Virus record (IMG/VR): IMGVR_UViG_3300003973_000001
Coordinates: 1-64,000 of that record
DNA length: 64,000 nucleotides
Reading direction: 5' to 3' (one strand)
Source: a virus
Taxonomy: Duplodnaviria; Heunggongvirae; Uroviricota; Caudoviricetes
The position numbers and the translations under genes are program-made. Position 1 is the stretch's first letter. Each line of letters opens with the position of its first letter. Under the pieces are notes generated by a model. That model searched no databases and was not told the origin of the DNA. It worked only from the letters and a program-made list of their open reading frames with translations. Positions 7,041 to 59,883 of the stretch are shown piece after piece.

Positions 7041-7071
7041 TGACATATATATATGGATGAAGGAGGATACT

Positions 7072-18060: not shown

Positions 18061-21000
18061 TTATAGTTTATTCTTGCTTTTTTGTAAAGCAATTTGTGGA
18101 AGAGATAGAATCGCATCCTTAATTCCGTCAGCAGTCTTAATATTAGGGAATTCAATATTGTCGATAGTGATTTGAGTTGGAGAACTCGCAACACTTCTAG
18201 ATACCGCCTGTCCATTAAATGTGTTCGGCATTCGAGAAAGTAATGCATCCGCGAACACTTTCCCTAGCTCACTGCTGATTTCAGTAAATGTCTTTTTCAA
18301 TTCATTGTTAAAGTCATTAGAAATAGGCTTCATAATGTCTTTTACTGGTAATTTAGACAATACATCTTCGTTGCCTTTGATATACTTAGAATACGCATCT
18401 ACCAGTTCTTTAACATAGTCTGATTGGATTTGTGGAAAGTCTCCTAAGATAGACTCAAATGCATCTCCAAGTTTTCCAATTGCATCTTCAAACTCTTTAA
18501 CAGATTCGTAGTCGCCCTCTTTAGCATTAGAAAGAATCTTATCTAACTGACTCAAGTAATCCTCTTTTGCCTTCTCCTCCATTTTCTGAAGTTCTAGCTG
18601 AGCTTTCTCAAGGTCTTCTTTAGCCTTATCAAGTTCCTTCTGGTCTGCTTCATAAACCCAGTCCCATTGACCCAATTCATTCTGCTTTAACGTCTGAACT
18701 TTCTTCTCTTGGTTAAGATTATTAATCTTATTCTGAAGCTCAACAATATCAAGCTGTTTGTTTAGATAGTCCATTTCGAACTTGCTTAGCTTTTCCTGCT
18801 TGTCAAGAAGTGCTAATTTATCCTCGTTAATACTAGTGCCAAGGTCAGCCATTCTCTTATACATTTTCTCTAATGCAATTTCTCGTTCTAAACCTTCTAT
18901 CCATAATTCTTGATGTTGCTTCCAAGCCTTCTGAGTCTTGCCTCCGAAGAACTCTTTCTCCATTCTTCCAGTGATATTATCGAATGAGTTATCCATAATA
19001 CTCTTGTTAATCTGAAGCAGTTCTTTATTACTATCATTAAGTTGCTTATTGTATTGCTCAACTTGTGCATTGATTAGATTCCACTCGAAACTTCCTTTTT
19101 CATACAGACCAAGCTGTTGATTCAAGTAGTTTAGGGATTTTTTAATTTCAGCATTCTTGTTTTGCTCCACATTAAGCTGTTCGCCTAGAATAGTACCCTT
19201 TGTTGCTGTATTATTCTTGTCTAGTAAGTTAACGATACTTGTGAGGTAATCTAGACTAGCAGATGCCTTGTCATACTCTTTAACAGCTTTGCTAAGTAAA
19301 CTAAATTCAAATTCAAATCGCTTTTTAATAGAATCTTTGATACTATTTTGAGCGCCTACATTATCCTTTTCATAATTAACAATTTGCTGTTTAATTTTCT
19401 CTACTTGGTCATCTGTTAAACTTGTATCTTGTAACTGACGATTTAACTCTTCAATTGCCTCATTATTGCCCATAATATTAGCTCTCAGATACTTTTCTTG
19501 TATCTTCATACTATCGATAATATATTTGTTTGTAAGGGATTCTTTGTCATCTGGGCTGAAAGCTGAGGCAAGATTGCGCTCATACTCTTTTAAAAGTGAC
19601 GATTGCTCTTTCTGAACCTCTTTTATATACTTCGTAAGCTGTCCTGCTACAAGAGTACCGTAGCCTCTATCAATCTTATTAATGTCTCCCATATCTCCTA
19701 GTACTGAATATGATATTTTTGACATCGAGAAGTCTTGACCATTCTTATAGGCATTCTCTAAGCTTAAAAGTTGATTATACATTTGTTTGTTGATATCCAA
19801 TGTAGAATTGGCAACCCACTCTGTTCTCTCAACGTTTTTCTTAGCATATCCTGCCAATGCTTCTTGGACTTCTTTTTCAAGATTAATGCGCTCTATAGCC
19901 ATCTGCTGAAGTCTATTGTCTCTAGATAGGTCAAGCTCAGTAATATTGGAGCTATATAAGTCTCCAACTCCTGTTCTGCTTAAAAGACCATCTTGCAAGT
20001 TCTTTACAACATTATCAATCTTAGAGTTATTTTCATCGATTGCAGAATTAAATTTAGTCATATCTTCAGTAACACGACTAATTTCAATATCATTCATCGC
20101 TTGACGATACTTCATAACAGCATCTGCCTGAGCTAGAATTGCAGAACTAACCTTCTGTAGCTGAGACTGAATTGTAGAGCCATTCTCCTTGAATTGTACC
20201 GACATGGTAGATAATCGATTGAACTCATTAATCAATTCAGACATGTTCTGCTTAGACTCATTTAAAGCTCTTGCATTAAGATGTAGAGCAAGCTCCTTAT
20301 CTTGTGAACCAACGAATCCAAGCTTCTTAGAAGTTATAGTGTCAGAGTTTGTTACTTTTGTAAGTACCGCATCTACTCTCTTCATTACAGGTTCAAGTTT
20401 TTTCAGTTCTTCAGCGATTCTAGATTTTTCAATCGTGTCATCTAAGCCTTTTATATTAGAGTTTAGAGTAGCAATTGTATCTTGTAAGCCATTCATCTCC
20501 CCAAACAAAGACTTCCATCTATTAAGAAGTTCCTCAGCCTTTTGAGCCGACTCCCCTTTGAGACCTCTAGCATGGTCAAGGTTATTGATTTTATTAGAGT
20601 TTGTATCTACTGAGAACCCATAACCTCTAAGCTTATTAAGGATATCATTCATCTCATTATCTTTACTGCTATATAAAGATTGATTATAAGAGATTTGTTG
20701 ACGCATCAGAGATTGCTGTTGTTTATAAAGCTGAATAAGTTTCGTTTGGTCGTCTTTTGCATCAGTGATTGCACGAGTAAGCTCTTTTAATTGCTTCTCA
20801 AGGTCTCCACCTCTATATGTTTCTTGCCCCCAGTAGCGCCAAACAGCTTCGCTCACCGTAGCATTCTCATTCGCAGAGTTATCTCTGTCTGAATTATATT
20901 TAGAAACACCAGATACGCTTCTACCAACGCCTTTTACTGGAACTCCATTGGCGCTTATAGAAGAGCTTCGACTAGAAGAGACATTTGCTACACTTGAAGA

Positions 21001-24000
21001 TTTACCTTGCTCTGGAGTAGCTGATACAGACTTGTCAACTTTCGCACCAGTTCCACTTCCTGCAACTTTGTCCAACCAACTCTTAGCCGATTTAGCCTGT
21101 TCGATTATCCAGTCAAGACCTTTAGCAACAACGGTAGTTACAACTTCTTTAGGAATTTCACCGTACTTTGTATTAAGAATACCAATCTTCTTTTCTGTTT
21201 CTGAGGCTTGCTTTCCGCTTCCCTTAATTTCCGCTTGAACCTCTTTCTCCGCACCTATATGATTACCAATGGCTATAAGAGCTTCTTCAGCAGTCTTAAT
21301 AGTTGTGCCTTTTTCTTTTATCTTAGCATCAATATTATTCTGAATTTCTTTTTGTAAATTTTTGTCAGCCGCGATTTTCTCTGGAGCAATACCTGCATAT
21401 TGTTGAAGTTCCGCACCTAAAAGTTCGGTTTCTTCTTTAGAAAGTGCAGTTCCTTCAGCAACCTTTTTCTGAACATTAGCTAAATCATCAGAAGATTTAC
21501 GCATATTGCGGTACTGAGCAATCATGGCAGGATAAACCGTAGTAGCTTGCTCTGCTGTTAAGTTAGAAGCCTTCATATTCTTACCTTGTTTTAAAAGTGC
21601 TTCCGCAGATGCATTGATAGAATGTTGTGCAGTTTCATATTCTTTACCTGCAGTGTTGATTTTCTTACCTAATCCATCGTATTCACCTTGCAAAGTCTTA
21701 AGTGTTGCTTGCCACATTTTACGCTTTTGGTCATCTTCTGGAGACGTTCCTAACTTGCCCATAGCCTCTTCAATCTCATTCATCTTCTTCTTGACGTTAT
21801 CTTGCTCACCTTTTAACTCTGCAATAGTTTGCTTGGATGTTTCAAGCTTTTCCCAGTCTCCAGTCATCTGGGAAACGATTTCAACAGTAGATTTCTCAGC
21901 TAACTTATCTTTTCTCTTTTGCAACTCATCTATCTTAGACTGAATTTCATCGTAGTTGTTAAATGTAAGCTTAATATCTATCCCAAGGTCTTGACCTTGT
22001 TTTTCTATCTCTTCTTTAATTTTCACAAACTCATCTTGTTCCAACCAAGATTGCGTACCTTCTTGGTTAGGGTCTTTATCGGTTTGTCTTGCCTTGTCTA
22101 GCTTCTCTTGTAACTTATCAAGGTTGGCTTGAGTCTTTTCAATCATACCGTTGACAATAAAGTTTGTTGCTTCGAATTTCTTAACCGACTGGTCGTACTC
22201 TAGAGCTTGTTTTTCAGCGCTCTTAAATAGGTTGTCGTAAGCCTTACCCATATTTTCAAATACAGGAACTCCAACGAAATCTAGTAATAGCAAGGCATCC
22301 CCAACTAAAGGAATCATGCCAAGTACCTTACCAATCCCCTTACCTACTGCAGAAATCTTGCTACTGGTCGCATCCAACGCTGTACTTGCATTTGTTGCGC
22401 TTTGAACAGCATTTCTAGTACCATTATTTCTGTCAGCATCAGCGTTGTTGTTACTATTATTATTTCTGCCACCAGAGTTAACGTTTCTTGAACCGCCATT
22501 ATTAATATCTACAGTAGATACATTGGCTAATCTTGCCTCTTGATTATATCTCCGCTGTGCATTTGTTGCATCGCCAATTTTACCTGTAAGAGTTCCAAAG
22601 TAATTACCTACTTGAGACAGGTCTCTCATAATATTACCTGCACCAGTTCTCATAGTGTCTGTTAACTGTCTCATACCATTGCTCATAGCATGGATACCAA
22701 CAGCAAATGCAGTGAACTTTAAAGCTTCCATGAACTTCTCATTCGTTGCTACATCTGCAAGCTTTTGAAGTGCCACAGTTACAGCATCAACTAATCCTGT
22801 AAGACCTGTAGAATTTCCGATATTATTCATTAATTCCATCCAAGCGTTCTTTAACTCTACTAACTTGAACTTAAGAGATGATGCCTGTTTCGCATGCTCT
22901 AGGTATGCAGAACCATTTGTACCTTGACCAAGTTGGTTATTCGTTTCTCCTGCAACCTGTTCAACTCGTTCCCATTGGTCGATGATACCACCAAGAATTT
23001 CGGCATGCTCCTTACCTGCTAGATAGAATTTTGCAGTACCTTTTTGTTCTTGAGAAAGAGAATCCCACTTTTTAACTAGGTCTCCTAAGATTGCATCACC
23101 TTCACGCATCTGACCATTAGAATCTTTAAAGTCTACTCCGATTTGTTTGAACCATCCAAATTTCTTTTGAGTATCTGGAGTCAACTGAGAAGTGATATTA
23201 GTCATGTTCATGGCAATCGTCTTAATACCTGTACCAATACGTTCCCCACCCTTACGAGTAGCCTCCTGCGCTCCTGTAATCATACCTGTTAAGTATCCAA
23301 AGTCGATACCAGTATCTTTTGCAGTATTTGCAGAACGAACATAAGCTTTCCCAAGGTCATCCATTTCGATGGCATGGTTATTGGCAGTTTCGTTCATTAC
23401 GTTGATTACGTCATTGGTTTCAAGACCCTGCTTTTTGAACGCGTTTAATGGAACTGACATGTATTTAACCATGTCGTCTGGCTTTAAGTTACCTACGAAA
23501 GAACCGACTAGCGATACTTTCGCTTTCTCTTGAGCCTGCATAAATGTCTCACCAGATGTTACCCACGTTTCTACAGCCTTCATATAATCAGAGGCAGTTA
23601 CCCCTAAAGTAGAACCTACATCAAAGGCTGTATCTTTAAAGCTATTTAAATCGGCTTCTGATGCCTGTGCAACCTTAGACACACCAATAAACGCTTCATC
23701 AAGCTCTTTCATTGGCTCTATAATAGCTCGAATAGCTTGCTCGGCATTTGCATATGCAGAATAGAAATCAATAACACCATGAGCATCGTTACTCATTCTA
23801 TCTCTCTCTCTGGCTTCCGAGCGAAGACGATTTAATCTTTGTTGGGCATCTTGAGCCTGTTCAATAGCATGAATTTCTCTCATTCGTTCTTGCACAAGTG
23901 AATTTTGGGCTGACAGTGATGCTTTCATTGCTTCAGCTTTTGACTTTTCTCCAGAAAGCGCTCTTTCAATCTCAGCTCTTTCTCTTGTGCCTGCGAAAGC

Positions 24001-25563
24001 TAAATCTCTACTAAGCTGATTAATGTTTCGCATTACAGTTTCATATTCTTTAAGTTTAGCAGTAACCGCATCTTGCTCTGCTCTATGTTTAGCTGTAATT
24101 TGGCTACGTTCCATCTCTCGCTGATTAATCTTGCCTGTCTCAGTTAATTGCTTCTGCATTTCGCGAGTAACAAGCTGAACACTTTCAAACATTTGTCTGT
24201 TTGCCTGTTGGTTTCGTTCTGCCAGTACAAGTTGTTCACGCAATGCTCTTAATTGAGAATTCTCTGCAACGCCTGCGTTCCCCATACTCTTTTTAGTATC
24301 TAACTCAGCAATTTTCATCTTTAAGCGATGAACATCTTGAAGGTCTGCTTTCATAACAGCTAGAGCTTCTTTTTGTTCCTGTTTGGTTTTTCTTTCTTCT
24401 TCAGTAAGCTTCTTGGCATCAGCCAATGCTTGCTTTTTAGCTTCAGCTTGTTGGACTTGCAACATACCAATCGTTCTGAGATTGTCCATCTCATCTTTTT
24501 GAGCAGAGGTCATCTTATCTTGGAGATTATGTTTCTCTTTAATCTTATTTTGAGCCTTCTCATAATAACCGAACAACTCTTGCTGAGAAGCCTTTTCTTT
24601 CTCTGTCGCATTAACCATTTGTACAGCAAGAGCATTTTTCTTAGCTTCTAATTGAGCAATTTTTGATACAGCCTGTGCAATTTCATTATTAGCTTGCTTC
24701 TCCTGTTGTTTTAACGCCAATAGCATCTTGGTTTCTAACGCAACCTCTTGTTGACGTTTAAGCTCCGCCATAGAGCCATGCTGAAGGTCGAGTGCGCCAT
24801 ACTGATATTTCTGTTTGAATTGGTCTGACAAGATTCCCAATTGCTCTTTTTGAATACCGCGTTCTCTCTCAAGTATTTGGAAATGTTTCCCTTGTGCGTT
24901 TACCTGTTCCATCTCAATCTGATGGATTCTTCTAGCAACACCTTCAAGTTCTTTCATGGCTTTTAATCTATCTTCAACAACCTTTACGTCACTTGTTCCA
25001 TCTGGTTTATTAGTTGTCGTCTTGGATACGCCAGAGCCAACATTCTCTGTTACAACTTTTGTTTTTAACGTTGTAGTACTGCCATCTTGATTTCTAACCT
25101 GTCTAGACAGAGTACTAATTTTTGCCCATGCGCCTGCTTGCTCTTTTAACGCTTCCGTTTCGCCCTTAGTTTTAGACTTAAGGCTGTCCATAGCATCATT
25201 CATTCGTTTTGCGTCACTAAGAACTTCTTTTAGAGGAGCGTCTAAATCAATGCCTTTGACATCTATTTTTAATTCACGCTTCTTGGTTAGCTCTTGGTCG
25301 AGCTGTTTCAACTCTCTATGGAAAGTGTTTACAGCTTTTAAAGCATCGCTAACATCTGCCTTTAATTTAATTTCAAAGGCATCTTCTTTCAAAGCTGTTT
25401 TAATTTTAGCTCTTGCACTTTTTAGACTATTACCATCAATGTCAATGTTAATCTTACCTTCGAAACCATTCTTAACTTTTGCCCATTTCTGAGCTAATTG
25501 AGCCTGTAGTTCTCCAACCGTAGGGAATTCGACACCGACTTCAATTCCTATCTTATTTGACAC
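18061..25563 (-). CDS. tail tape-measure protein (about 2500 aa)
   Basis: Giant coiled-coil Q/E/K-rich protein with a central hydrophobic/glycine region. The track start (TTG at 25590) lies inside the 19-bp motif. A GTG at 25561-63, 10 nt after an AGGAAGG RBS, is more plausible. Confidence 0.85.
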   Translation of the reverse strand: MSNKIGIEVGVEFPTVGELQAQLAQKWAKVKNGFEGKINIDIDGNSLKSARAKIKTALKEDAFEIKLKADVSDALKAVNTFHRELKQLDQELTKKRELKIDVKGIDLDAPLKEVLSDAKRMNDAMDSLKSKTKGETEALKEQAGAWAKISTLSRQVRNQDGSTTTLKTKVVTENVGSGVSKTTTNKPDGTSDVKVVEDRLKAMKELEGVARRIHQIEMEQVNAQGKHFQILERERGIQKEQLGILSDQFKQKYQYGALDLQHGSMAELKRQQEVALETKMLLALKQQEKQANNEIAQAVSKIAQLEAKKNALAVQMVNATEKEKASQQELFGYYEKAQNKIKEKHNLQDKMTSAQKDEMDNLRTIGMLQVQQAEAKKQALADAKKLTEEERKTKQEQKEALAVMKADLQDVHRLKMKIAELDTKKSMGNAGVAENSQLRALREQLVLAERNQQANRQMFESVQLVTREMQKQLTETGKINQREMERSQITAKHRAEQDAVTAKLKEYETVMRNINQLSRDLAFAGTRERAEIERALSGEKSKAEAMKASLSAQNSLVQERMREIHAIEQAQDAQQRLNRLRSEARERDRMSNDAHGVIDFYSAYANAEQAIRAIIEPMKELDEAFIGVSKVAQASEADLNSFKDTAFDVGSTLGVTASDYMKAVETWVTSGETFMQAQEKAKVSLVGSFVGNLKPDDMVKYMSVPLNAFKKQGLETNDVINVMNETANNHAIEMDDLGKAYVRSANTAKDTGIDFGYLTGMITGAQEATRKGGERIGTGIKTIAMNMTNITSQLTPDTQKKFGWFKQIGVDFKDSNGQMREGDAILGDLVKKWDSLSQEQKGTAKFYLAGKEHAEILGGIIDQWERVEQVAGETNNQLGQGTNGSAYLEHAKQASSLKFKLVELKNAWMELMNNIGNSTGLTGLVDAVTVALQKLADVATNEKFMEALKFTAFAVGIHAMSNGMRQLTDTMRTGAGNIMRDLSQVGNYFGTLTGKIGDATNAQRRYNQEARLANVSTVDINNGGSRNVNSGGRNNNSNNNADADRNNGTRNAVQSATNASTALDATSSKISAVGKGIGKVLGMIPLVGDALLLLDFVGVPVFENMGKAYDNLFKSAEKQALEYDQSVKKFEATNFIVNGMIEKTQANLDKLQEKLDKARQTDKDPNQEGTQSWLEQDEFVKIKEEIEKQGQDLGIDIKLTFNNYDEIQSKIDELQKRKDKLAEKSTVEIVSQMTGDWEKLETSKQTIAELKGEQDNVKKKMNEIEEAMGKLGTSPEDDQKRKMWQATLKTLQGEYDGLGKKINTAGKEYETAQHSINASAEALLKQGKNMKASNLTAEQATTVYPAMIAQYRNMRKSSDDLANVQKKVAEGTALSKEETELLGAELQQYAGIAPEKIAADKNLQKEIQNNIDAKIKEKGTTIKTAEEALIAIGNHIGAEKEVQAEIKGSGKQASETEKKIGILNTKYGEIPKEVVTTVVAKGLDWIIEQAKSAKSWLDKVAGSGTGAKVDKSVSATPEQGKSSSVANVSSSRSSSISANGVPVKGVGRSVSGVSKYNSDRDNSANENATVSEAVWRYWGQETYRGGDLEKQLKELTRAITDAKDDQTKLIQLYKQQQSLMRQQISYNQSLYSSKDNEMNDILNKLRGYGFSVDTNSNKINNLDHARGLKGESAQKAEELLNRWKSLFGEMNGLQDTIATLNSNIKGLDDTIEKSRIAEELKKLEPVMKRVDAVLTKVTNSDTITSKKLGFVGSQDKELALHLNARALNESKQNMSELINEFNRLSTMSVQFKENGSTIQSQLQKVSSAILAQADAVMKYRQAMNDIEISRVTEDMTKFNSAIDENNSKIDNVVKNLQDGLLSRTGVGDLYSSNITELDLSRDNRLQQMAIERINLEKEVQEALAGYAKKNVERTEWVANSTLDINKQMYNQLLSLENAYKNGQDFSMSKISYSVLGDMGDINKIDRGYGTLVAGQLTKYIKEVQKEQSSLLKEYERNLASAFSPDDKESLTNKYIIDSMKIQEKYLRANIMGNNEAIEELNRQLQDTSLTDDQVEKIKQQIVNYEKDNVGAQNSIKDSIKKRFEFEFSLLSKAVKEYDKASASLDYLTSIVNLLDKNNTATKGTILGEQLNVEQNKNAEIKKSLNYLNQQLGLYEKGSFEWNLINAQVEQYNKQLNDSNKELLQINKSIMDNSFDNITGRMEKEFFGGKTQKAWKQHQELWIEGLEREIALEKMYKRMADLGTSINEDKLALLDKQEKLSKFEMDYLNKQLDIVELQNKINNLNQEKKVQTLKQNELGQWDWVYEADQKELDKAKEDLEKAQLELQKMEEKAKEDYLSQLDKILSNAKEGDYESVKEFEDAIGKLGDAFESILGDFPQIQSDYVKELVDAYSKYIKGNEDVLSKLPVKDIMKPISNDFNNELKKTFTEISSELGKVFADALLSRMPNTFNGQAVSRSVASSPTQITIDNIEFPNIKTADGIKDAILSLPQIALQKSKNKL

Positions 25564-25584
25564 TAAGCTAACACCTTCCTTTTT

Positions 25585-25603
25585 CTGCAATACTTTAGTT
25601 TAA
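25585..25603 (-). promoter_or_regulatory. 19-bp motif class A variant (upstream of TMP)
   Basis: ctgcaatactttagtttaa. Confidence 0.5.
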
Positions 25604-25612
25604 GAGAGGATA

Positions 25613-26644
25613 TTACTCCTCCCTGTTTTTCTCTCTGAGCTTCTTCATCTTATCGCGAATCTCAGCCTTAGACTTAGGTTTCACATAATGTTTTTGAGTT
25701 GTGCTAACATCGGAATGGTTAAGAAATTCCTGAGCTAATGTTAAATCCCCTGTTTCATCAACGATTCTATTTCCTGCTGTTTTACGAAGACAGTGAGGGT
25801 GTAAGTCTGGTAATCCTAAGATAGTACCAATCTTTCTAACTCGCATATAAATTGAAGTCTGAGACATCTTTTTATATTCTCCATCTTTCTTAACAAGGAA
25901 AATTCCATCGCATTCTAGATTATCCATAGACTCACGTTTTACCTTCCACTCTTCTAGCAACTTAGCAGAACCTTCTTCAAAAGCAACCTCTACCATCTTA
26001 CCGCGCTTCTCTCTGATATCTAAGAACATCATATTCTCGGCATCTAAACTAGACCACGTAAGCTTAGAAATAGCTCCATTTCGGTTTCCACTTTCAATCA
26101 TGATATGCCAGATTAATAGGTCTTGAATATCAAACTTTCTTCCCTTTTCTTTCTGGTAATCTTCATGAAGATATTTTGTTACAACATCAATCTGCTCTTG
26201 ATTTAAGAAGTAGTGGTTAATAAGCTTTTCATCATTAGCACCCTTCATTCTGTCTAGCTTTCTATCAAATGGATGAGCCTCGATAATACCTCGCTTCATA
26301 GCCCATAAGTAGTAACTAGATACAGCAGAAAGCTTTGTGTTAATTACTTTCTTGTTATTACCAAGCGTATCTTGACAGAAGCCAATGTACCCTTCCATAA
26401 TATCTACAGCATTTTCCATATACTCTTCATCATGAATGAAAATGTTTTCCCATTCCTCTTCCATGTATACAAGGAATTGATTGAAGTAATTTTGGTAAAC
26501 CTTGTAAGTTGTCTCTTTCACATCTTTGTTCTTAATAATGTTGGAGCGAAGGTATTTTTCATAAGCTTTAACACTCTTCTGATTAACCTTTGCCAACTTA
26601 TCTTTTGTAAAATAACGTTTATAAACTCGTTTCTGAGCCATCAA
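25613..26644 (-). CDS. tyrosine site-specific recombinase/integrase
   Basis: Catalytic signature: R (GNRNGA), HxxR (LHPHCLRK), H...Y (QKHY). Confidence 0.8.
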   Translation of the reverse strand: MMAQKRVYKRYFTKDKLAKVNQKSVKAYEKYLRSNIIKNKDVKETTYKVYQNYFNQFLVYMEEEWENIFIHDEEYMENAVDIMEGYIGFCQDTLGNNKKVINTKLSAVSSYYLWAMKRGIIEAHPFDRKLDRMKGANDEKLINHYFLNQEQIDVVTKYLHEDYQKEKGRKFDIQDLLIWHIMIESGNRNGAISKLTWSSLDAENMMFLDIREKRGKMVEVAFEEGSAKLLEEWKVKRESMDNLECDGIFLVKKDGEYKKMSQTSIYMRVRKIGTILGLPDLHPHCLRKTAGNRIVDETGDLTLAQEFLNHSDVSTTQKHYVKPKSKAEIRDKMKKLREKNREE

Positions 26645-26685
26645 TACACCTCTATTCTTGAGTAGTATGATAGCCTCCTAAATTC

Positions 26686-27189
26686 CTAAAATACCTTTAC
26701 GTCCCATCCTTCTCTACGAAGAGCCATTGCTAACTCTTTAGGAATGTCAGCGTCTAATTTATGGTAAGATTTCTCCATATAATGAGCGCCATCTCTATCC
26801 CATAAAGAACCACTTGTACCTTCTTCAACCCACATTGGAATGTATTCGCTAGTATCTTCTGTATATGAAACATCCGCATGGGCATTCCATCCGACTCCAC
26901 CAAAAGCTCCATTTCTGTTATGAGCATTGATTTTATCTGTATCCATAATGATTTCAAATGTAGCGAATTTAGTTCCAATTTTCAGATTATCGATGGTCAC
27001 ACTATTCATTAATTCGAACGTTCTATCATAGGCGTATTCACCTTGAGGCACATACGTGTCATAAACATTCTTCTTTACATTCTCCTGCACAACTTTGATG
27101 CAGATGTTTGTAATCTGATTCTGTATAGTATCGATAATGGAACGTTTTAGGTGAGCATGAAGAGCAGAGACACTATCGAACTTCCGCAC
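26686..27189 (-). CDS. hypothetical protein
   Basis: GTG start with GAGGTA RBS. Overlaps the upstream gene by 17 nt. Confidence 0.5.
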   Translation of the reverse strand: MRKFDSVSALHAHLKRSIIDTIQNQITNICIKVVQENVKKNVYDTYVPQGEYAYDRTFELMNSVTIDNLKIGTKFATFEIIMDTDKINAHNRNGAFGGVGWNAHADVSYTEDTSEYIPMWVEEGTSGSLWDRDGAHYMEKSYHKLDADIPKELAMALRREGWDVKVF

Positions 27190-27820
27190 CGTCTGCTACC
27201 TCATATTCTGTTTTCCCAGTTTTTAATTGAATTGTATCTTCCATTTGAGTAATGCTTGATTCTGCATTTTTCAACTCTTCTTCTCTTCTTAACATCTCTG
27301 TTTTTGCAAGATTCTCAATGTCTTGTGTAGTCTTTTCAATCTTATCTAAGTTTTCTTTTACCTTTGGATTGTAATTAGCATGGTTTAATAATGCTGAAGG
27401 GATAGAATTGATTAGTTCTGATTGAGCCAAGATGCTATCTGCGCTTATGATTTCAGACTTCATATTTTCAGCATAAAGCTTATTAATCTCTGAGATAATT
27501 TGAGCTACGATATTTTGTGCAATCAATAGGTGAACTGAAGGATTGTCAATTGTCTTATTAATCTCTTCATCCGACATATCGCTAACGTCAATATTCGTTA
27601 GTAATGGGAATACATCTTTCATCATTGTCATTCCATCGAATATGATTTTGTCATTTTCTAAACCCATTCCTTTTGCGTTCTGCAAATCGATGATTGCATT
27701 CGCATCAACTAAAGTTGGTTCATAAATTTCAATATTTCCTTGTGGAGCGTTAACGTATTCGCGAATCTTTCGAACTCCCTCTTGAGCTACTTGAAGTGAA
27801 TCTAATTTAATTTTTGTCAT
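27173..27820 (-). CDS. hypothetical protein
   Basis: AGGAGG RBS. Preceded by a motif copy. Confidence 0.5.
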   Translation of the reverse strand: MTKIKLDSLQVAQEGVRKIREYVNAPQGNIEIYEPTLVDANAIIDLQNAKGMGLENDKIIFDGMTMMKDVFPLLTNIDVSDMSDEEINKTIDNPSVHLLIAQNIVAQIISEINKLYAENMKSEIISADSILAQSELINSIPSALLNHANYNPKVKENLDKIEKTTQDIENLAKTEMLRREEELKNAESSITQMEDTIQLKTGKTEYEVADGAEVR

Positions 27821-27839
27821 AATTATGTATCCTCCTTGT

Positions 27840-27858
27840 TTGCAAATCTTTTGCTTAA
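27840..27858 (-). promoter_or_regulatory. 19-bp motif class B
   Basis: ttgcaaatcttttgcttaa upstream of 27173..27820. Confidence 0.55.
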
Positions 27859-27917
27859 TTAAATAATATCAAAAAAGATGGCATGCGTCAACACATACCA
27901 CCAAACTTTTTGATATT

Positions 27918-27936
27918 CTGCAAATCTTTTGTTCAA
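27918..27936 (-). promoter_or_regulatory. 19-bp motif class B variant
   Basis: ctgcaaatcttttgttcaa. A terminator-like hairpin plus T-run (27860-27900) lies between the two copies. Confidence 0.5.
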
Positions 27937-28058
27937 CCTAACAGCTTACAACGCTCACCATAGTTCGCGCTTGGGTTTTCCCATATGTAATGAGGCAGGG
28001 TTACTGGTTTGTCGAACTACTAATACTAACCCTTTTTCGTAATAAAACCGCTCTTTTA

Positions 28059-28514
28059 TTAATTCTTATCGTTCATAGAATCAAATTTGCCATCTTTAAA
28101 ATTGGCGCGGTCTCCACCTTTTCCTTTAACCTGTGACAATCTGTCAACAATACCTTGAGGAATTGGAACTCCTAAAGACGCTAGGTTTTCTAATACAGAT
28201 ACTCCCTCTACGAAGATATAGAACCATACAGCAACTGTTCTAAGCAGTGGCGCGGTCTCTGGCATTAAACCATCGAACATTGTAGCTAACATAATTACAA
28301 TGAAGTATCCAATTTTAGTTGTGAATCCTTCTCTCATTCTTTGGCTAGAGAAACTCTTATCTCTCCATCCTTTTAGCATTCCTGTTAAAATATCCAGAAT
28401 AACACAAGCAACAATTACCTGTAATGGTTTATCCCATCCTCCAAGTAATGCTGTTAATCCTGTCATACCGCCTGCAAAAATAACAGATACCTCATTTAAG
28501 TTTTCGAACTTCAA
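28059..28514 (-). CDS. holin (3-TM Bacillus phage holin type)
   Basis: 151 aa. Three hydrophobic segments and a charged C-terminus. Confidence 0.65.
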   Translation of the reverse strand: MKFENLNEVSVIFAGGMTGLTALLGGWDKPLQVIVACVILDILTGMLKGWRDKSFSSQRMREGFTTKIGYFIVIMLATMFDGLMPETAPLLRTVAVWFYIFVEGVSVLENLASLGVPIPQGIVDRLSQVKGKGGDRANFKDGKFDSMNDKN

Positions 28515-28776
28515 ATCATAACACCCTTCCGTTTTATAATAACCATTTATCTCTTAATGGATATTAATGATTGCAGGGTCTCCTATATCTCGTTTACTTG
28601 CTACCGTTCTTTAATTGCTCAATCTCTTGTTGCTGTGTAAAGATAACCGCATCTTTAACAGCATTGTCTCTAGTCAATTCTGCAATCTTTACGCTTAAAT
28701 TTTCAACCACTACAGCAAGGTCAACATTCATATTCATCTGCACCTACGTCACCACCTTTCTGTTTTAAGGAAACTA

Positions 28777-29325
28777 CTATTCAGACTTCGTTAGAACTGC
28801 TTCCTTTTTCTCTTCTTCTTTCTTTGGTGGCTCATTCCAGTTGATAAGAACTATTTCTGCATGAGTTGTTGCATTGTTGATTTTTGTCTTGCGCTCGCTA
28901 TACTTAAATAACTGAGTTTTCTTATGCATAAACGCCTCTCTATACACGTTATTCAACCACTCGTCTCTTGAATGTTCAATGTAGTCAACATCTTCGGTTA
29001 GCCAAGGGATTACTTGAGTTTCTTTGTCGAAGAAGATTAGCTCATGAGCTTGCCCTATGAAGTTAATTTGGTCTTCATTTTTCATTCTATATGTGTGTCC
29101 ATTAGTGGACTTAAATCCCTTTACAATAGCATCGTCACATATTTCAGACAACATTTCACTCTTTAGCTTTTTATGATGATTTAATATATATCCTTCTGTG
29201 ATTTGTGAGAGGACTGCGCCCTCCTTTCTTGCCAGTGTCGTAATAAGTTCATTCTTTTGCTCCATTGTCATTCTATCGAATCCAATGTCTACTAGTGTCT
29301 TTTCAATCTGAGAATCGAACAACAC
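28777..29325 (-). CDS. hypothetical protein
   Basis: ORF. Confidence 0.5.
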   Translation of the reverse strand: MLFDSQIEKTLVDIGFDRMTMEQKNELITTLARKEGAVLSQITEGYILNHHKKLKSEMLSEICDDAIVKGFKSTNGHTYRMKNEDQINFIGQAHELIFFDKETQVIPWLTEDVDYIEHSRDEWLNNVYREAFMHKKTQLFKYSERKTKINNATTHAEIVLINWNEPPKKEEEKKEAVLTKSE

Positions 29326-29337
29326 TTAATCATCTCC

Positions 29338-32300
29338 TTATCTGTTGTTTAATTGGTTTTTAAGGTATCTCACCTGCTCCGAAAGCTCTTGTATTGCCTT
29401 CCAAGCTAATGTTGTCATCCCATAACCATCTACTGTTTTACCATCTTTCCCTTGAATTAATTTAGGTGCTTCTTCTGCAATTAATCCAATGTTCAACTTT
29501 TCACTGTCATCTTGACTATTGTAGTGGTATAGCCTAGCCTTAGAAGCATTGATTATATCTAATGCACTTCTTTCAAAAGCCGAGATATTCTTCTTATAAT
29601 CTCTAGAAGAAGTATTCTCTATAATACCTGCTAATCTCGCCCAATCAGTATCATTCCCATTACGAGTTTCAAAGCGACCCATAGTTTGTTGATACTTGAA
29701 GATTGCATGAGTGCCATACTGTTGCATGTAGTTAGCCCCTTGAATCCAATAACCCATTAAACGGCTTCCATTTTGGTTAAAAGATATACCGCCACCATAT
29801 GCGTTTATTTCAGTTGACTGGTCTGCATTCTTGCCAATACCAGTTAAGAACTTAACACGACCATTTGCATCCTTAATCGACCAAGTTGCATATTTATCTG
29901 AATTGGGATTACCTACAATATTTCCCCAACCATTAATAATTGCTGATTGATAGCTTTGAAATTGAATAGCAGGTTCGTCCGCATTCTTGCCATGAATCTC
30001 GATTCCTGATTCAGTGGTAAACATTAATCCTGCGCCCGAACCATTTGATAAACCTTGAAACTCAACCGTAGACTTTACAGACCCAACGCTAAATTCAAGA
30101 ATTGACGGAAAGACCTTCGTGTTTCGACTACCATGCGTAACAGTCATTACTGAAGGCTGTATAGCAGTACCTTTATCACCAAAAGGCGAGCCACTTTCAG
30201 CCATTTCAAAGACCTTAACAAGACCTTCTTTTAACTCAGCGTAGTTCTGCTTCGTACCATCAGAAGCACCGTAACTTTTAAATGTGTTACCCTCAATGAC
30301 AGCCTTAATTTTAGGATTTGAAGCGTTAATACTTTGATAAGTAACACCCTTAATCGTACCACCGACAACTTTATCACCACTGATATTCTGAGATTTAAGA
30401 TTATTGATAAAAGCAGTATGAGCGAATAGGCTTGCTACATCTAACTGTTGAGCCTTAATAGAGCCATCAACAATTAATTCTCCAGTGTATCGTTTGCGAA
30501 CTTCTATATCTCTAATATAGTAATATCCACTAGTTCCACCATCTTTTTCAAAGAATAATTGGATACGAGAAATTGTCTTCGTGTCATCTGGAGCAGTCGT
30601 AATCTTAAGGTTCTTAATTACACGAGTGTCTGCTGTTGTAGGAAGAGCAGATATCGCCCCTGCATTTACCCAAGTACCATCAGTGTAATGATATCGCATA
30701 ATTAGATTAAGACTTGTTACACCTGCATCACGATACCCATTGAAGGCAATGTAATACTCATCGTTAACCTTAAACTCAACATAAGTATTGTCCATTATTG
30801 TAAGTGAAGCATAAGCTCCATTCCCAATTTTGAAGAATCTCTTATTGCTTAATAGAACCGTAGGATATCCATTAGGATTTTTCTCTTCGTTAATCTGAGA
30901 CAAGTTAGTAAAGTCGCCAATCGCAATCTGCTGAGCGAAGATTGTATTTGTGGCAATTTTTCCACCATTGATTAACGTTGTCCCTGATTTCCAAGAGTCT
31001 AGTAGGCTCTTTGCACCATTCCAGTTAGAAGCAGAAGAGATTTGTGCATCAAGGATAGTTCCACTTAACTTACTTGAGTTAAATGTTCCATTAGAGTTGA
31101 TATTAGAAGCTCTGTCCCATGTAGCCTTGTTACTATTGATAGCATTGTTTGCTGTGTTTGCTGTATTATTTGCCGTATTGGCAGTTCCTTGAGCGCCATC
31201 AGCTAATGACTTAGCTTTCTGATTAATTACCTTGACTAACTGTGCTTTCTTATCATAATAGTCATCAAATTGACCTCGGAATGTAGCGCCAGTAACAGCA
31301 GAAGTCGTTGTCATATTCGTTAGAATACCGCCAGTACCATTAAGAACAGTGTTTAGAGTGTTATAGGAATTAACAAAGTTTGTCTTCTCTGTTGTGATAC
31401 CATATGTTGTAGCCAATACTTCGTACTGAGGTTTCTCAGAAAGCATTACAGCCCACTCTTTCTTCAATTGAACTTTTTCCACTGGAGTAATCTTACTGTC
31501 AGAAGACATGTCTGCGATAGAGTTTTTAGCCTCTTGAGCTTTTGCATCTGCCCCAGTTCCAATACTTCTAGACAATTCATTAATCTTTCTAACCAGTTGA
31601 GCCTTCTTATCATAGTAGTCATCAAACGTATTTCTAAATGTTTGACCATTGACATCGCTTGTTATAGTAATGTTAGAGATAAGAGGTGAAAGGAGAGTAT
31701 TTAACGCATTATAAGAATTAACGTAATTTGTCTTTTCAGTAGTGATGCCGAAAGTATTTGACAATGCCTCATACTGAGGTTTCTCTGCTGAAATCGTTGC
31801 CCACTCTTTTTTTAACTGTTGCTTCTCAAGTGGAGTTAACTTATTATCATTTGACATATCTGTGATAGAGTAGTCATAGTCTGTAGCATCAATAACTGTC
31901 GCGTATGCAACATGCCAAGTTAAAGGTAATGTTCCACCTTCTAGGTTGAAGAAGTTCGTTGAACTGAAAGTTCCTGCTGAACCGCATTCTATTCTAAATA
32001 AGTATTCTTCCCACTTACCTGTACCTGCTGTTGGAGTTAACCACTCTTGCTTACCGCCTGTTCCAGTTGAATTACTAGCAAATACAAGCTTAGAACCAAC
32101 AGGTATTTTCGCGACAATTCTAGTTATAAAAATAGCATTTGCTCTAGAAGCAGTTTGGAATGAGAACCCACCGTAAGCAGGAGAGATAGGTAATGCAAGA
32201 GATTTTATCTCCAAGACATGTGTTGAATTCGTTGGAGCATCACTTGGCTTAGCAACCCTAGTTACTGTTACGTTTGTATTAGCTGAGTTGTTATATACTT

Positions 32301-35300
32301 TAACGTCATTAAGTCCATTCTTAAACATTGGGTCGCTGTATAAGACTTTCCCATTTAACCCTTGAGTTAATGTTCTCGACAACTCATTAATCTTTCTGAC
32401 TAATTGAGATTTTCTATCGTAGTAATCATCAAACTGCGCTCTAAACGTTGCACCAGTTACACTAGAAGTTGTCGTCATGTTTGTAAGTATTCCGCCACTT
32501 CCATTTAATGCTGTATTCAGAGTGTTGTACGCGTTAACGTAATTATTCTTTTCGGTAGTAACACCAAATCCATTCCCCAAAGCTTCGAATTGAGGCTTCT
32601 CGGCGACCATCACAGCCCATTCCTTTTTAAGCTGAACCTTTTCTACAGGAGTGATTTTGCTATCGCTAGACATATCTGCAATAGAGTTCTGAGCTGTTTG
32701 AGCTTTACTGTCCGCATTAGTACCAATCGTTCTAGCTAGTTCATTAATCTTTTTAACCAATTGTGACATCTTGTCGTAATAATCATCAAATGTATTTCTG
32801 AATGTCGCTCCGTTGATATCACTAGTCACTGTTGTATTAGCGATGATAGGAGTAACTGCTGTATTCAAAGTATTATAAGCATTGACATAGTTCGTTTTCT
32901 CAGTAGTAATTCCATAGATAGTAGCAAGTGCTTCATACTGTGGCTTTTCCGCTACGATTGTCGCCCATTCCTTTTTCAACTGTTGTTTTTCTAAAGGAGT
33001 AGCTTTATTGTCGTTTGACATATCGGCAATAGCACTTTGACTACTTTGAGCCTTTTTATCAACGTCAGCAACTAACTTATCGTAATCCTCTGGAGCTAAA
33101 GTGAAATCAGTTTTTCTGTTACCTTTTTCGAGTTTCATTCTCTTAACATAGAATTCTACTCCATTAGCAAGTGCTGTCGTATAGAAGATGACTGTTCCAT
33201 TTCCTACACCAGTCCCCTTGAATGTATGAGAATATTCTCTCCAAGTAGTGTCAACGTCTACTGTTTTAACGTCAATACTCTCTGCGCCAATGTGAAGCTT
33301 ATGATTTCCTGTACTAGCCTTCATCATTACGCTAACAGTGTACTCTTGGTCTTTCTCAAATACTTTAGTAGCAGAAGAACCGCCACCCAATCTCTGATAA
33401 ATACCTGCTCTTCCTGCTCCAGTGTTAGGAGTAAACTTGAAAGCCTTATCCTCTCCATCGTCTACAACTGCAGTTTGAGCCACGTTTGAATACCAGTTAG
33501 TAGCACCTTGAAGCAATCCTGCATTTAGGAATATGTTCCTACCACCGACAGACATGTTGTCGAGATTTCCTTGAACTCTGGCAATAGCCTCATCAATATC
33601 CTCTTGAGCCAAGCTGTAATCTGTAACTACGTTTCCTAGCTCACCTTTTACATTTCTTATTTTAAACGTAACAGGCGCACCGCTATTATTAACTAATCCA
33701 ATGTTAGATTGGTCGTATAAATCACTAGTGTAGTTATCCTTGTTCTTCCAAGTAAACCAACATTTAGTCCACGTATTAGCTTTTAAGCTTTTGCTAGAAG
33801 TCTGTCTCAATGCAGTATCGTCATTATCATTAGATGTGGACGTTCCAGTCACAGGGAAGTTATTTACATCAGCATTCCAAGTAGTATCGATAGGAGAATA
33901 AATCTCAAAGCTAACCGCGAACCAACTCCCAATAGGAACTACAGAAGTTTTATCGATTATTCTTACGCCTGCACCCCATGAACCACCTGCTCCACTATTA
34001 GCAGTTAAAGTCCAAGTATTTGTAGCTTCATCATATGATGAAGAGGTTACGTTTATAGGAGATATCTGTTTCTTTCTAACAATGTTTTTCGCACCGAATT
34101 GCATTCCATCGATTTTATCCTTAGCATCAGTACCTGCGTTAACTTTACCTTGCATAGCAGGGTCTAAGCTTTGGAATGTAACAGCTCCTGTGATATCAAG
34201 ATGTTTGCCAAGGATTTTAACACCTTCTGCACTAGCGTTGATAGAAGTTTTTACATTACCCTTCTTAACAACATTGATAGCAATCTCTTCAGCGGTTTGT
34301 TTAATTTGAGTTCCTTGAGATTCAACAGTTGTTTTCATACCGTCTACATCTTTTTTAACATCAGTAACAGTCTGTGAAATCCCCTTAGTAGTAACTTCGA
34401 TTTCTGATTTCAACTTAGTCGCAGATTCAGTAATCTTCCCATTTGCTTGCTCTATCGTATATACTTTATCAGCTTCAGCTTTAAGTGCAATACTTTTGTT
34501 TAATAATGTAATAGATGTATTATGCTCTTCAATAGCTGTTCCTTGTTGTGTAACAGACTTACTTAAATCCGTTACGGACTGCCTAATCTTTCCTGCGTCC
34601 TGTTCGATTGCTGTTGTTTTCTTTCCTAAATTATCTAATTCAGTTACGGTAAGTGAAATTTTATCATTCGCGACTTTAAGTGCGCCTTCTGCAACTTCGA
34701 CTCTTCCGTTTAGTTTGTCAACTTTTTCATCAGATGCCTTAAGTTCAATAGATTCGTCTAGTTGCTCTAATTTTGTTTGTTGTGTAGAGTATTTATCATT
34801 CAACTCATCAAAGTCTTTTTTCTCTACCGTATTAACTATCTTACCTTCTAAAATTTCAACGCTAGATTCCGCAGTCTCTAATCTATTAGAGTACTCATTA
34901 AATCTTTCCGTTTCTACTTTGGATTTAATAGCATCGCTTAATACCTCCATAGAAGATGATTGTGACTCCACTTTATTACCTAGCTCTGTCACTTCATCTT
35001 TTGTAGCCATAAGCTTAATACTATCTTCTGTCTGTTTGAGAGATGTTTCAGCCTCTCTTAGTCGAGCATCATTCTTGTCCCCAACGCCAATCACTGCAGT
35101 TAGCTTATCGACCTGCGTAGATAATTTAACGCCTAGATTCATAACTGGCGCTCCTGTGCGATTCCCATGGAGAATATCCACTGTATTCCATCCTGCATTA
35201 AATCCAAGAGCAACTTTAGTTCCAATAGTACTCATATGAGCATTTTCGTATATTTTAGCTCCATTCATATAGATGGTCAAACTATCTTCATGAACAACAT

Positions 35301-36335: not shown

Positions 36336-37094
36336 TCATTCACCGATGATTTTGTAAGTAGCCATATTCTTGTCTTTATCTGGGAACAAGTCAAATGTTA
36401 CTTCAAGCTTTGTAGGCTCTGTAGCAGACATTGTGATTGTAAAGTTAGATTGTGGACGAGCGTTTGGATACTCAATTTGTACGAACTCATCAGTTCCAGT
36501 TTCTTTTTCACGCATTAAAGCATCAGCAACAATGCGGTAAGCTTTAGGGAACTTATCTGCTGAGATAGAGATAGTACGAGCTTGAGCGTCTTTTACTAAG
36601 TAGTAAATAGCGTAAGCGTCACCTACAACTGCATCTGTAGCGAAAGTGATGTCAGAACCAGTGATAGTGAACTGACCTGCTGTTGGAGAAGCAGTAACCT
36701 TGTTTAAAGGCTCATCGATATGCTCGATTTGGTCTCCACCAACTTTGATAATTGTTACAGAATCAGCTACTGGAGCGCCTGCTAATGTAACTTTCTTAGT
36801 AGAAGGAATACGCACAACTTCACGTTTAGCGATGTTAGTTTCACCCTTAACAATTTCTGAACCTGCTACCATAGCTAACCATTGTAGTTCGAATACTTCC
36901 ATTTCAACTTTTAACGTACCTTGACGGTCAGCGTCCCAAGCGATAGAACGTACTCCTTTTGCGTTTGCGAATACACGCTCTGCTTGCCATTCGTTAGTAG
37001 CAACGTTAGCATAGTCAGAGAATACTGCAGGTTTTCCTGTTGCTAATTCAAAAAGACTTAAATTAGCGCAATCTTTAATACCGTAAATAGCCAC
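36336..37094 (-). CDS. major tail (tube) protein
   Basis: GTG start with AGAGGTG RBS. 252 aa, beta-rich. Position between the head-tail genes and the tail. An open in-frame extension follows its TGA stop (see findings). Confidence 0.65.
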   Translation of the reverse strand: MAIYGIKDCANLSLFELATGKPAVFSDYANVATNEWQAERVFANAKGVRSIAWDADRQGTLKVEMEVFELQWLAMVAGSEIVKGETNIAKREVVRIPSTKKVTLAGAPVADSVTIIKVGGDQIEHIDEPLNKVTASPTAGQFTITGSDITFATDAVVGDAYAIYYLVKDAQARTISISADKFPKAYRIVADALMREKETGTDEFVQIEYPNARPQSNFTITMSATEPTKLEVTFDLFPDKDKNMATYKIIGE

Positions 37095-54649: not shown

Positions 54650-54740
54650 GAAAGCGCCACTGCGCGCGACCACCCACTTATCTCTCTCTTCTTAATATGG
54701 TTCTTTTCTGCTTAAATGGTTCTCTTTTATTAGACCCCCA
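54650..54740. repeat. GC-rich segment (GCGCCACTGCGCGCGACCACCCAC...TTAGACCCCCA) duplicated at 54948-55016
   Basis: About 80-bp imperfect direct repeat preceding each iteron array. GC-rich, unlike the flanking AT-rich DNA. Confidence 0.5.
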
Positions 54741-54862
54741 GATTTACACCAATAGGGGGTGTGTATTTCCGTATACCTGTCGGAGATTTACACCCCCTAT
54801 TGGTGTAAAAATCCGTATACCCTCGGAGATATACACTAGCAGGGGGTGTAAATCTCCGTATA
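54741..54862. repeat. iteron array 1: at least 3 copies of a ~22-bp unit TATACGGAGATTTACACCCCCT (some as inverted pairs)
   Basis: Direct and inverted copies of GGTGTAAATCTCCGTAT / TACACCCCCTATTGGTGTA. Confidence 0.6.
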
Positions 54863-54903
54863 CTTTAACTCATGGATAAATTTTAACAGAGAATAAGAAA
54901 TAC

Positions 54904-54922
54904 TGCAATACTTTTGTTTAAA
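54904..54922 (-). promoter_or_regulatory. 19-bp motif class A heading the first iteron unit
   Basis: ctgcaatacttttgtttaa. Confidence 0.55.
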
Positions 54923-55016
54923 GGAATACGTTTCAGTAGTGGGAAAAGAGCGCCACCGCGCGACCCCACTACTATCTCTCTCTGCTTCGTCTGGTTCTCT
55001 TATTATTAGACCCCCA

Positions 55017-55094
55017 CATTTACACCCCCTAGTGGTGTAAATCTCCGTATGGTATGCGGAAATACGCACCCCTAGAGGGTGTAAATCTCCGTAT
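55017..55094. repeat. iteron array 2: 2-3 copies of the same unit
   Basis: atttacaccccctagtggtgtaaatctccgtat ... agagggtgtaaatctccgtat. Confidence 0.6.
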
Positions 55095-59866: not shown

Positions 59867-59883
59867 AAGAAAAGGAGAATCGC

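Follow-up and report, generated by a model that had tools for sequence, protein, structure and literature searches.

A YomM-family tyrosine recombinase with a conserved place in the tail module of an SPbeta-related phage-plasmid

A gene for a tyrosine recombinase lies among the tail genes of a phage-plasmid of the Bacillus cereus group, between two small genes and the gene for the giant tape-measure protein (TMP), and the same place is held by its counterparts in SPbeta and in a wide range of long-tailed relatives. The gene (25613..26641, minus strand) was found in the stretch of DNA analysed here, referred to as the window: 64,000 nucleotides (nt), positions 1 to 64,000 of the IMG/VR virus record IMGVR_UViG_3300003973_000001. 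Its product, of 342 amino acids (aa), is assigned to the YomM family of simple tyrosine recombinases through PF00589, the PHROG integrase families, alignments and matches to structures in the PDB, and is probably catalytically competent. The function that we tentatively favour for it is a role in the topology of the phage's own genome, in the manner of Cre in phage P1.

A fixed slot in front of the tape-measure gene

In SPbeta the genes run in the order yomU (virion structural), youA/yomT/S/R/Q/P, yomO, yomN, yomM, yomL/K/J and yomI (TMP). The gene yomM (SPBc2p036) is annotated as a 'site-specific integrase' of 333 aa, and youA/yomT/S/R/Q/P are fibre genes of the XkdV/W/X type, forming a block between the tube gene and the small genes as in the window. 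The window recombinase likewise stands between YomO/YomN-type small genes and the TMP gene, on the same strand; the TMP gene follows it directly, whereas SPbeta has the cargo genes yomL, yomK and yomJ between yomM and yomI. Homologues of YomM are found in phi3T, Goe12, Geobacillus phage E3 (gp28), Tsamsa (gp227) and Sophrita (gp209), and Lactococcus phage WRP3 (gp155). YomM and these homologues share with the window protein the slot after YomO/YomN-type genes and before a giant TMP, a length of 333-343 aa, a two-domain build and the same catalytic residues, and the phages that bear them resemble the window element in having genomes of more than 100 kb and very long non-contractile tails. The window protein is only 18-25% identical to them.

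The core order, namely a structural protein, two small genes, the recombinase, none or one small open reading frame (ORF) and the giant TMP, is widespread. It is found in Brevibacillus phage Sundance, Lysinibacillus phage LC76P1, Alicyclobacillus phage KKP_3916, B. anthracis phage Sophrita (a relative of Tsamsa) and Lactococcus phage WRP3 (949 group), and the same slot is occupied in a B. wiedmannii plasmid, an L. reuteri plasmid and chromosomal prophages of several Bacillales genera. A large downstream ORF, defined as one of at least 1,000 aa, or an open-ended one of at least 400 aa, on the same strand, follows the recombinase at 36 of the 47 IMG/VR loci outside a gut-metagenome clade (80 loci in all), several of the remaining 11 simply running out of sequence. 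The representative genomes give the same picture at 13 of 15 loci, among them a complete Oceanobacillus chromosome, a 1.77-Mb Paenibacillus scaffold and the 138.5-kb Lactobacillus reuteri plasmid p53608_1.

Identity in relatives amounts to 75-82% for the recombinase, against 38-43% for the TMP, 41-60% for the small proteins, 48-56% for the holin and 58-84% for the tube protein, so that it outdoes its immediate neighbours and is comparable to the tube protein. Composition along the region shows no discontinuity. What varies is a block of fibre and holin genes (28059..35988, minus strand), made up of a 2,216-aa fibre, a DUF4376 protein, an ORF of 47-49 aa and the holin, which is missing at the corresponding position in Sundance, LC76P1, Sophrita and WRP3 with the recombinase still in its slot. 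The indel among relatives is the fibre/holin block and not the recombinase, which has apparently been inherited vertically in the SPbeta-related long-tailed siphophages of Bacillota.

A sequence-only reading of the window had called this placement unusual, had regarded the separation of the tube and TMP genes by fibre, holin and recombinase as atypical, and had proposed the insertion of a mobile or lysogeny cassette, to be judged by whether the recombinase or the whole 26.7-36 kb block was an indel among related phages. The placement proves to be the family norm in phages, plasmids and prophages alike, and the layout of SPbeta matches that of the window with the fibre block included. Because the order is conserved across the family, insertion fails on the very comparison of gene order that was to decide it; the depth of conservation of the slot, the greater conservation of the recombinase than of its neighbours and the even composition all speak against it. 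The gene family and its position have been visible since the annotation of the SPbeta genome, and the Tsamsa and Perkons papers comment on them.

Between the window recombinase and YomM itself, similarity is weak: pairwise BLAST gives 27% identity over 109 aa (E = 2e-5) and tblastn E = 0.003, and a full-length alignment shows 18-19% identity with all motifs aligned. Assignment to the YomM family is based on synteny together with similarity at the level of the superfamily.

In more distant clades the recombinase gene has a different position, though still next to late genes: it lies 3' of the lysis genes in c-st, phiCD211 and 6ec. The recombinases of the clostridial siphophages c-st and phiCD211, with genomes of 130-186 kb, have the same catalytic residues and are 24-29% identical to the window protein over ~90% of its length, but their genes follow the lysis genes beside regulators and are not in the tail module. 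The gut-metagenome clade (IMG/VR loci L061-L093, contigs of 80-210 kb) encodes recombinases 49-51% identical to the window protein in another context; at L071 (7700-18650), for example, the gene lies beside an HU-like gene, and ~4 kb on are genes for an endonuclease VII-like protein, the large terminase and the portal.

Several relatives show peculiarities of their own around the slot. The YomM-like gene of KKP_3916 (L013, 9001-9961) is frameshifted after about residue 245, with the HxxR, H and Y residues continuing in another frame; the record annotates only a 250-aa coding sequence, and the break in frame could reflect an error in the sequencing, decay to a pseudogene or a programmed frameshift. 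In many relatives (L095, L096, L098, L100, L105 and L106) the TMP gene is spread over two or three ORFs, with the PhageMin_Tail domain cut at the end of an ORF, and homing-endonuclease genes of the GIY-YIG, HNH_repeat or DUF723 type lie between or beside the pieces, which hints at introns or inteins within the TMP genes of the family. At other loci the same place, 3' of the recombinase, is taken by beta-helix depolymerase-like and Wzy-like cargo. Capture of cassettes there in the manner of an integron was considered and rejected, the DNA in question consisting of GIY-YIG/HNH homing endonucleases, split TMPs and depolymerase-like and Wzy-like proteins.

A two-domain enzyme with all catalytic residues present

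The recombinase ORF spans 25613..26644, and the likely start is the ATG at 26641, as the gene callers have it. Residues 149-323 match PF00589 (Phage_integrase) at 77.7 bits against a cut-off of 27.1 (E = 1.2e-21), the N-terminus shows a weak SAM-like domain (PF13102), and the PHROG match is to integrase families. The Pfam search returned PF13102 and PF00589 only and no arm-binding domain. A Xer/Cre-like 'simple' enzyme, composed of a SAM-like core-binding domain and a catalytic domain, is well supported by these matches. No second recombinase was detected within the window.

The catalytic set comprises the first arginine (Arg-I) R187, the hairpin lysine K212, H283-x-x-R286, H309 and the nucleophile Y319, all of which align with XerA/XerC-like structures in the PDB. 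The description of a complete tyrosine recombinase with R, HxxR and H...Y residues, made from the sequence alone, is thus confirmed by the PF00589 match and the alignments. These positions are invariant in an alignment of 12 relatives at 50-80% identity, and again in an alignment of 11 sequences reaching down to 19-25% identity, which took in SPbeta, Sophrita, Lactococcus WRP3, Staphylococcus 6ec, c-st and phiCD211; the sole exception is SPbeta YomM, with Lys in place of the second arginine (Arg-II) that the window protein retains. Invariance of the catalytic residues in such divergent homologues argues for selection on the chemistry and not on binding alone, and the enzyme is probably catalytically competent.

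Among characterised systems, the Xer proteins (XerC/XerD, XerS, XerH and archaeal XerA) give the best profile and structure matches, with aligned active-site motifs. The scores nonetheless fall far below every curated NCBIfam cut-off, at 91 bits against 335 for XerC, 90 against 220 for XerA, 65 against 330 for XerD and 51 against 267 for XerS, which rules out an orthologue of XerC, XerD, XerS or XerA. The window protein differs from them further in being phage-borne, in having no B. subtilis-type dif site in the window and in showing no evident partnership with FtsK.

The element: a phage-plasmid related to SPbeta

The window is, judging by its genes and relatives, part of a ~128-kb SPbeta-related phage-plasmid of the B. 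cereus group. An identical recombinase protein occurs on B. cereus contigs of 127.6-128.0 kb, and dozens of proteins 75-95% identical to it are encoded by contigs of ~115-140 kb that come from the B. cereus group and other Bacillaceae. Identity between the window and the contigs on record is 99.7-99.8% and thus not complete. The circular plasmid of B. wiedmannii SR52 (NZ_CP032366; 137,592 bp) has the same gene order and a recombinase 80% identical to that of the window, and also encodes a 'replication initiator protein A', equivalent to the RepA-like protein of the window, together with a helicase, functions of nucleotide metabolism and a full virion module. Megablast of the region gave no match to phage records and only an 11% match to plasmids, which is why relatives were found at the protein level; two exact-protein look-ups, made to test for circular permutation of the contig, gave no match.

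A plasmid-maintenance region occupies 54700..61878 on the plus strand. Two repeat arrays flank a RepA-like HTH_36 protein (55396..56445, plus strand): palindromic repeats at 54700-55100 and iteron-like repeats at 56490-56720. One array is of the type GAGATTTACACCCCCTA..GGTGTAAA, the other of the type TAGTGTAAAGAAATTTTATACTA. The arrays look like iterons, an origin or a centromere. A UvrD-type helicase (57886..59850) and an Alp7A-type actin (60712..61878) follow on the plus strand, as does a 95-aa ORF. Taken together, the RepA-like gene, the arrays and the Alp7A actin resemble a plasmid replication and partition module. SPbeta is an integrated prophage; the window element is a plasmid prophage.

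The window also encodes an antirepressor and an amidase. A cluster of 13 tRNA genes (48682-50711, minus strand; Trp, Glu, Thr, Gly, Cys, Tyr, Pro, two for Ser, Gln, Asp, Ala and Asn) lies upstream of the packaging and head genes and accounts for a local rise in GC. On the strand opposite to the lysis genes, 7057..8166 (plus strand) encodes a Rap-like protein with RapH_N and TPR_12 domains, which could be a peptide-signalling receptor of the Rap/AimR type in the lysis-lysogeny decision.

A proposed Cre-like role in genome topology

The reading that we favour, at somewhat less than even confidence, is that the recombinase acts in a Cre-like fashion on the phage's own genome, in multimer resolution and/or in cyclisation or monomerisation. 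By analogy, it would carry out site-specific recombination on phage DNA, as Cre does for phage P1. Multimeric circles would be converted into monomers, so that a low-copy plasmid prophage could segregate, and a terminally redundant genome might also be cyclised or monomerised during infection. The likeness to P1 Cre/loxP extends over (i) a simple recombinase of ~340 aa that has no arm-binding domain, (ii) a plasmid lifestyle and a partition system of its own, inferred here from the RepA-like gene, iterons and Alp7A actin of the window and from relatives that are circular plasmids, one of 137.6 kb, or contigs of ~115-140 kb, and (iii) headful packaging from a pac site, described for SPbeta-like phages 'as in P1' (bioRxiv 10.1101/2021.11.22.469490). 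Circular plasmid prophages usually carry Xer-like recombinases, thought to resolve dimers, and c-st is an experimentally proven plasmid prophage (PMC8026635). Differences from Cre are also plain: no sequence similarity was detected, Cre is absent among the PDB matches at E <= 0.001, and the window gene, unlike cre, lies in the tail module.

Several observations weigh against this reading. Palindromes of the lox or dif type, with arms of 10-11 bp and spacers of 5-9 bp, yielded none shared between the window, which is half of the element, and the B. wiedmannii plasmid, and none conserved in position near the recombinase in ~95 loci; nor does the window contain a match to B. subtilis dif at three mismatches or fewer, the one dif sequence tried. 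Genome resolution, already raised by the sequence-only reading, remains a putative role, no recombination site having been found in the window, the B. wiedmannii plasmid or the ~95 loci. Catalytically intact homologues occur in integrated prophages (the Oceanobacillus chromosome and the 1.77-Mb Paenibacillus scaffold), and likewise in the Lactococcus 949 group (WRP3) and Staphylococcus 6ec, which we take to be virulent. Resolution of plasmid dimers alone cannot explain retention of the gene across such a family. The position inside a block of structural genes suits a late function better than plasmid maintenance during lysogeny. A literature search for yomM and related names turned up no experiment and no reported function. 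The B. wiedmannii plasmid, moreover, carries a second, unrelated tyrosine recombinase-like gene near a helix-turn-helix regulator region (L009 40504-41556, equivalent to NZ_CP032366 90504-91556), with Lys at Arg-II (HSLK), whose product could be a repressor of the MrpR type or itself the dimer resolvase; the window does not reach the equivalent part of its own element.

The palindromes that the window does contain belong to iteron arrays or terminators, and a perfect one at 56580-56608 is a single unit of the iteron-like array beside the RepA-like gene. In c-st (L011), palindromes with 10-bp arms lie ~560 bp upstream and 520 bp downstream of the recombinase, and in phiCD211 (L012) one lies 96 bp upstream. 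They have perfect arms and AT-rich spacers of 6-8 bp and are CTAG-rich, as in GACCTCTAGT-GTTAAATT-ACTAGAGGTC. These are possible recombination sites, with a half-site orientation that differs between the two phages.

Rival readings: a possible lytic-cycle enzyme or regulator

The strongest rival, though in our estimate an unlikely one, is an enzyme of the lytic cycle untied to lysogeny, made late with the tail proteins and perhaps carried in the virion, whose targets would be replicating, packaged or injected DNA. It might cyclise the incoming genome at a terminal-redundancy site, process intermediates before headful packaging, or relieve torsion as a type-IB topoisomerase does. The gene lies within the structural block and seems to share a transcript with genes for virion or assembly proteins, the recombinase is conserved like the major structural proteins, and the full catalytic set is found in the same slot in Sophrita gp209 and in WRP3 gp155. 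Retention of catalytic residues in phages regarded as virulent suggests a role in the lytic cycle. In the gut clade, at 50% identity, the gene lies ~4 kb upstream of terminase and portal, beside HU-like and endonuclease VII-like genes. Against this, the Tsamsa proteome bands named in passages of PMC3903500 do not include gp227, and no virion proteomics puts the recombinase in particles. The absence of a recombination site counts here as well, the motif 5' of the gene's transcription unit also precedes early genes and so gives no proof of late timing, and the frameshift in the deposited KKP_3916 sequence, if genuine, speaks against an essential role.

In its broadest form, to which we give rather less credence, YomM-type recombinases would be active lytic-cycle enzymes across the very long-tailed siphophages of Bacillota, whether temperate, plasmid-borne or virulent, produced together with the tail proteins, perhaps brought in by the virion, and cyclising or processing a large terminally redundant genome.

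That the protein is a recombinase-derived DNA-binding regulator or architectural protein, able to bind a repeated motif, seems improbable. The precedent is MrpR (YopR) of SPbeta, a tyrosine-recombinase fold that has lost catalysis and binds SPBRE repeats (PMC10516654); it comes from the same phage group and belongs to the same fold class, the SPbeta family being known to re-use the recombinase fold. The window has 22 co-oriented copies of a 16-nt motif, two before the three-gene unit of the recombinase and one right after it, and SPbeta YomM has Lys in place of Arg-II. Yet MrpR, encoded in an early or regulatory region, has lost most of the catalytic residues, whereas the window protein, encoded among tail genes, keeps all six, which are invariant across very divergent homologues bar the SPbeta substitution.

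Improbable readings: integrase, cassette or invertase

The recombinase is probably not the prophage integrase of the family. SPbeta has an annotated integrase, yokA, at the attachment-site end of the prophage, far from yomM, and the SPbeta literature credits integration to the serine recombinase SprA. In Psychrobacillus phage Perkons, integration was performed by a serine integrase, and the tyrosine recombinase ORF195, reported to be homologous to E3 gp28 and Tsamsa gp227, has no demonstrated role (PMC13245101). Of these two homologues of YomM, the E3 protein is 82% identical to it and the Tsamsa protein 32%. The hallmarks of a lambda-type integrase are lacking: the protein has no arm-binding domain, and its gene lies inside the tail module of an element with replication and partition genes. 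An attP-like sequence, which the sequence-only reading had proposed to look for, is not found beside the gene; the flanking gaps, 41 bp upstream and 22-50 bp downstream, are too short to accommodate an arm-type attP.

Service as an auxiliary or alternative integrase, for a second attachment site or for other hosts, is improbable. An 'arsenal of integrases' is proposed by the authors of the Tsamsa (PMC3903500) and Perkons (PMC13245101) papers, homologues are present in integrated prophages, and the nearest relatives in small phages, those of the Fusobacterium phages phiRTG5 and Funu1 at 36% identity, are annotated integrases at genome ends. The window gene is not at a prophage end, has no arm-binding domain or adjacent non-coding attP to go with it, and is kept in plasmid prophages and in phages regarded as virulent; the serine integrase is the active one in Perkons, and the recombinase is far more conserved than is usual for integrases that track different attB sites.

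A mobile or lysogeny cassette of recent insertion, or an invertase for the switching of tail fibres, is very improbable in spite of the nearby giant fibre gene and holin and of very weak matches to NCBIfam models for DNA invertases of the tyrosine type (32 and 26 bits, where the cut-offs are ~221), given the deep positional conservation of the gene also where the fibre block is missing, the lack of a compositional break, and the lack of meaningful inverted repeats. In 17500-37500 no significant inverted repeats flank the fibre block or lie within it, the best pairs being 16-30 nt long, 70-94% complementary and scattered as by chance, and no segment near the recombinase is bounded by inverted repeats, as would be expected of an invertase or shufflon of the FimB/E or Rci kind. 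The repeats within the fibre gene are direct, in-frame domain repeats. The suggested switching of tail fibres or host range accordingly finds no footing in the region.

Neighbouring genes and the transcription unit

The ORFs for recombinase, small proteins, TMP, holin, fibre and tube all lie on the minus strand in the ORF map, and the gene calls and coordinates given by the sequence-only reading were correct. For the TMP (18061..25563, ~2,500 aa), whose ORF spans 18061..25590, the likely start is the GTG at 25563 with an AGGAAGG ribosome-binding site, on which the gene callers agree. The protein has a PhageMin_Tail domain and is the positional equivalent of SPbeta YomI, with a tblastn match to the yomI region at 23% identity.

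Upstream of the recombinase, the adjacent small gene (26686..27189) encodes a YomN-family protein of 167 aa, a probable virion or tail-assembly component. A precomputed match to PF27376 (YomN) is joined by weak similarity to SPbeta YomN (E = 3e-5); a YomN homologue is named 'HK97 gp10 family' by one source. In WRP3 and Sophrita, the annotation given to homologues of the small proteins is that of virion structural proteins, and a positional homologue of the small genes has a weak PHROG match to 'tail completion or Neck1'. An AlphaFold2 model of the YomN-family protein has a predicted local distance difference test score (pLDDT) of 65, and the fold search with it gave no significant PDB match and weak viral matches only. 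The other small gene (27173..27820), in the YomO position of the ORF map, overlaps that of the YomN-family protein by 17 nt and encodes a 215-aa protein with no family match in Pfam, PHROG or NCBIfam searches and no significant similarity to SPbeta YomO; its single-sequence structure model (pLDDT 46) is unusable. No frameshift signature of the G/GT type was found between the two small genes, the second ORF having its own GTG and a frame that is closed two codons upstream. The small genes are conserved upstream partners of the recombinase. Their position fits the suggestion that they are tail-assembly chaperones, but the missing frameshift signature and the fold search leave that identity unproven, and there is no sign that their products assist the recombinase as DNA-binding accessory factors.

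By rising coordinate, the fibre/holin block comprises the holin (28059..28514, 151 aa, Phage_holin_4_1), the 47-49-aa ORF seen by the gene callers, a 182-aa fibre protein (28777..29325) with DUF4376 and a match to PHROG 'tail fiber protein', and the 2,216-aa fibre (29338..35988). The fibre ends in a C-terminal Peptidase_S74 domain, an intramolecular chaperone domain typical of fibres and spikes. Inside its gene, at 31342-33035, are four copies of a direct repeat of ~350 nt, 66-75% identical, which probably encode repeated shaft domains. Beyond the block lies the gene for the 252-aa tail tube protein (36336..37094), with a precomputed match to PF27173 (YomU_Tube) and a match to phrog_2729, a virion structural protein (1e-69). 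Both the YomU_Tube and the YomN assignments come from precomputed Pfam matches on near-identical contigs.

The recombinase and the two small genes seem to form a single transcription unit, which is partly shown and partly inferred. Upstream, the unit would be bounded by a terminator-like hairpin with a T-run that ends the fibre/holin unit (27877..27902, minus strand) and overlaps a promoter-like site, TTGACG-17-TATTAT, and by two copies, just 5' of the three genes (27839..27937, minus strand), of a 16-21-nt motif of the AAGCAAAAGATTTGCA type that recurs throughout the genome. Its downstream limit would be a weaker copy of the motif, situated after the stop codon of the recombinase and before the start of the TMP (25584..25604, minus strand). 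At the other edge of the fibre/holin block lies a strong terminator (36134-36163) with a promoter-like site after it. Sigma-70-like sites in the promoter scan were no more numerous than in shuffled sequence. The three-gene unit may be under its own regulation.

The motif itself, AAACAAAAGTATTGCA or AAGCAAAAGATTTGCA in its 16-nt form, has 22 copies in the 64 kb, against 0-1 in shuffled sequence. They start at 852, 1548, 3725, 10312, 13750, 13828, 18013, 25586, 27841, 27919, 34486, 36075, 37133, 40576, 40654, 51447, 52873, 54615, 54904, 56982, 57817 and 59850. All are co-oriented with the local genes and are found before early-type and structural genes alike. Some contain a -35-like TTGCA with TATAAT 17 nt on; others precede a start codon by 14-37 nt and lack a -10 element. 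A variant that ends in TTGAA occurs 18 times in the B. wiedmannii plasmid. The motif may be the counterpart of the SPBRE operator of SPbeta, which is bound by MrpR, or a phage-specific promoter element.

Implications

A catalytically intact recombinase fixed in the tail module of a whole assemblage of phages, apparently including virulent members, is of moderate interest in itself, and SPbeta offers a genetically tractable model that carries yomM. The window also documents an SPbeta-related phage-plasmid of ~128 kb that could serve as a Gram-positive counterpart of P1. For annotation the consequence is more immediate. Annotators and lifestyle predictors take an 'integrase' as a sign of a temperate phage, as the Tsamsa paper does explicitly; the tail-module recombinase is present whatever the lifestyle and is not the active integrase where this has been tested, which makes it unfit as evidence for integration. 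If the broad lytic-cycle proposal were true, a site-specific recombinase would be a core function of morphogenesis or infection and not of lysogeny, and the common practice of reading this gene as a sign of a temperate phage would be mistaken for this group.

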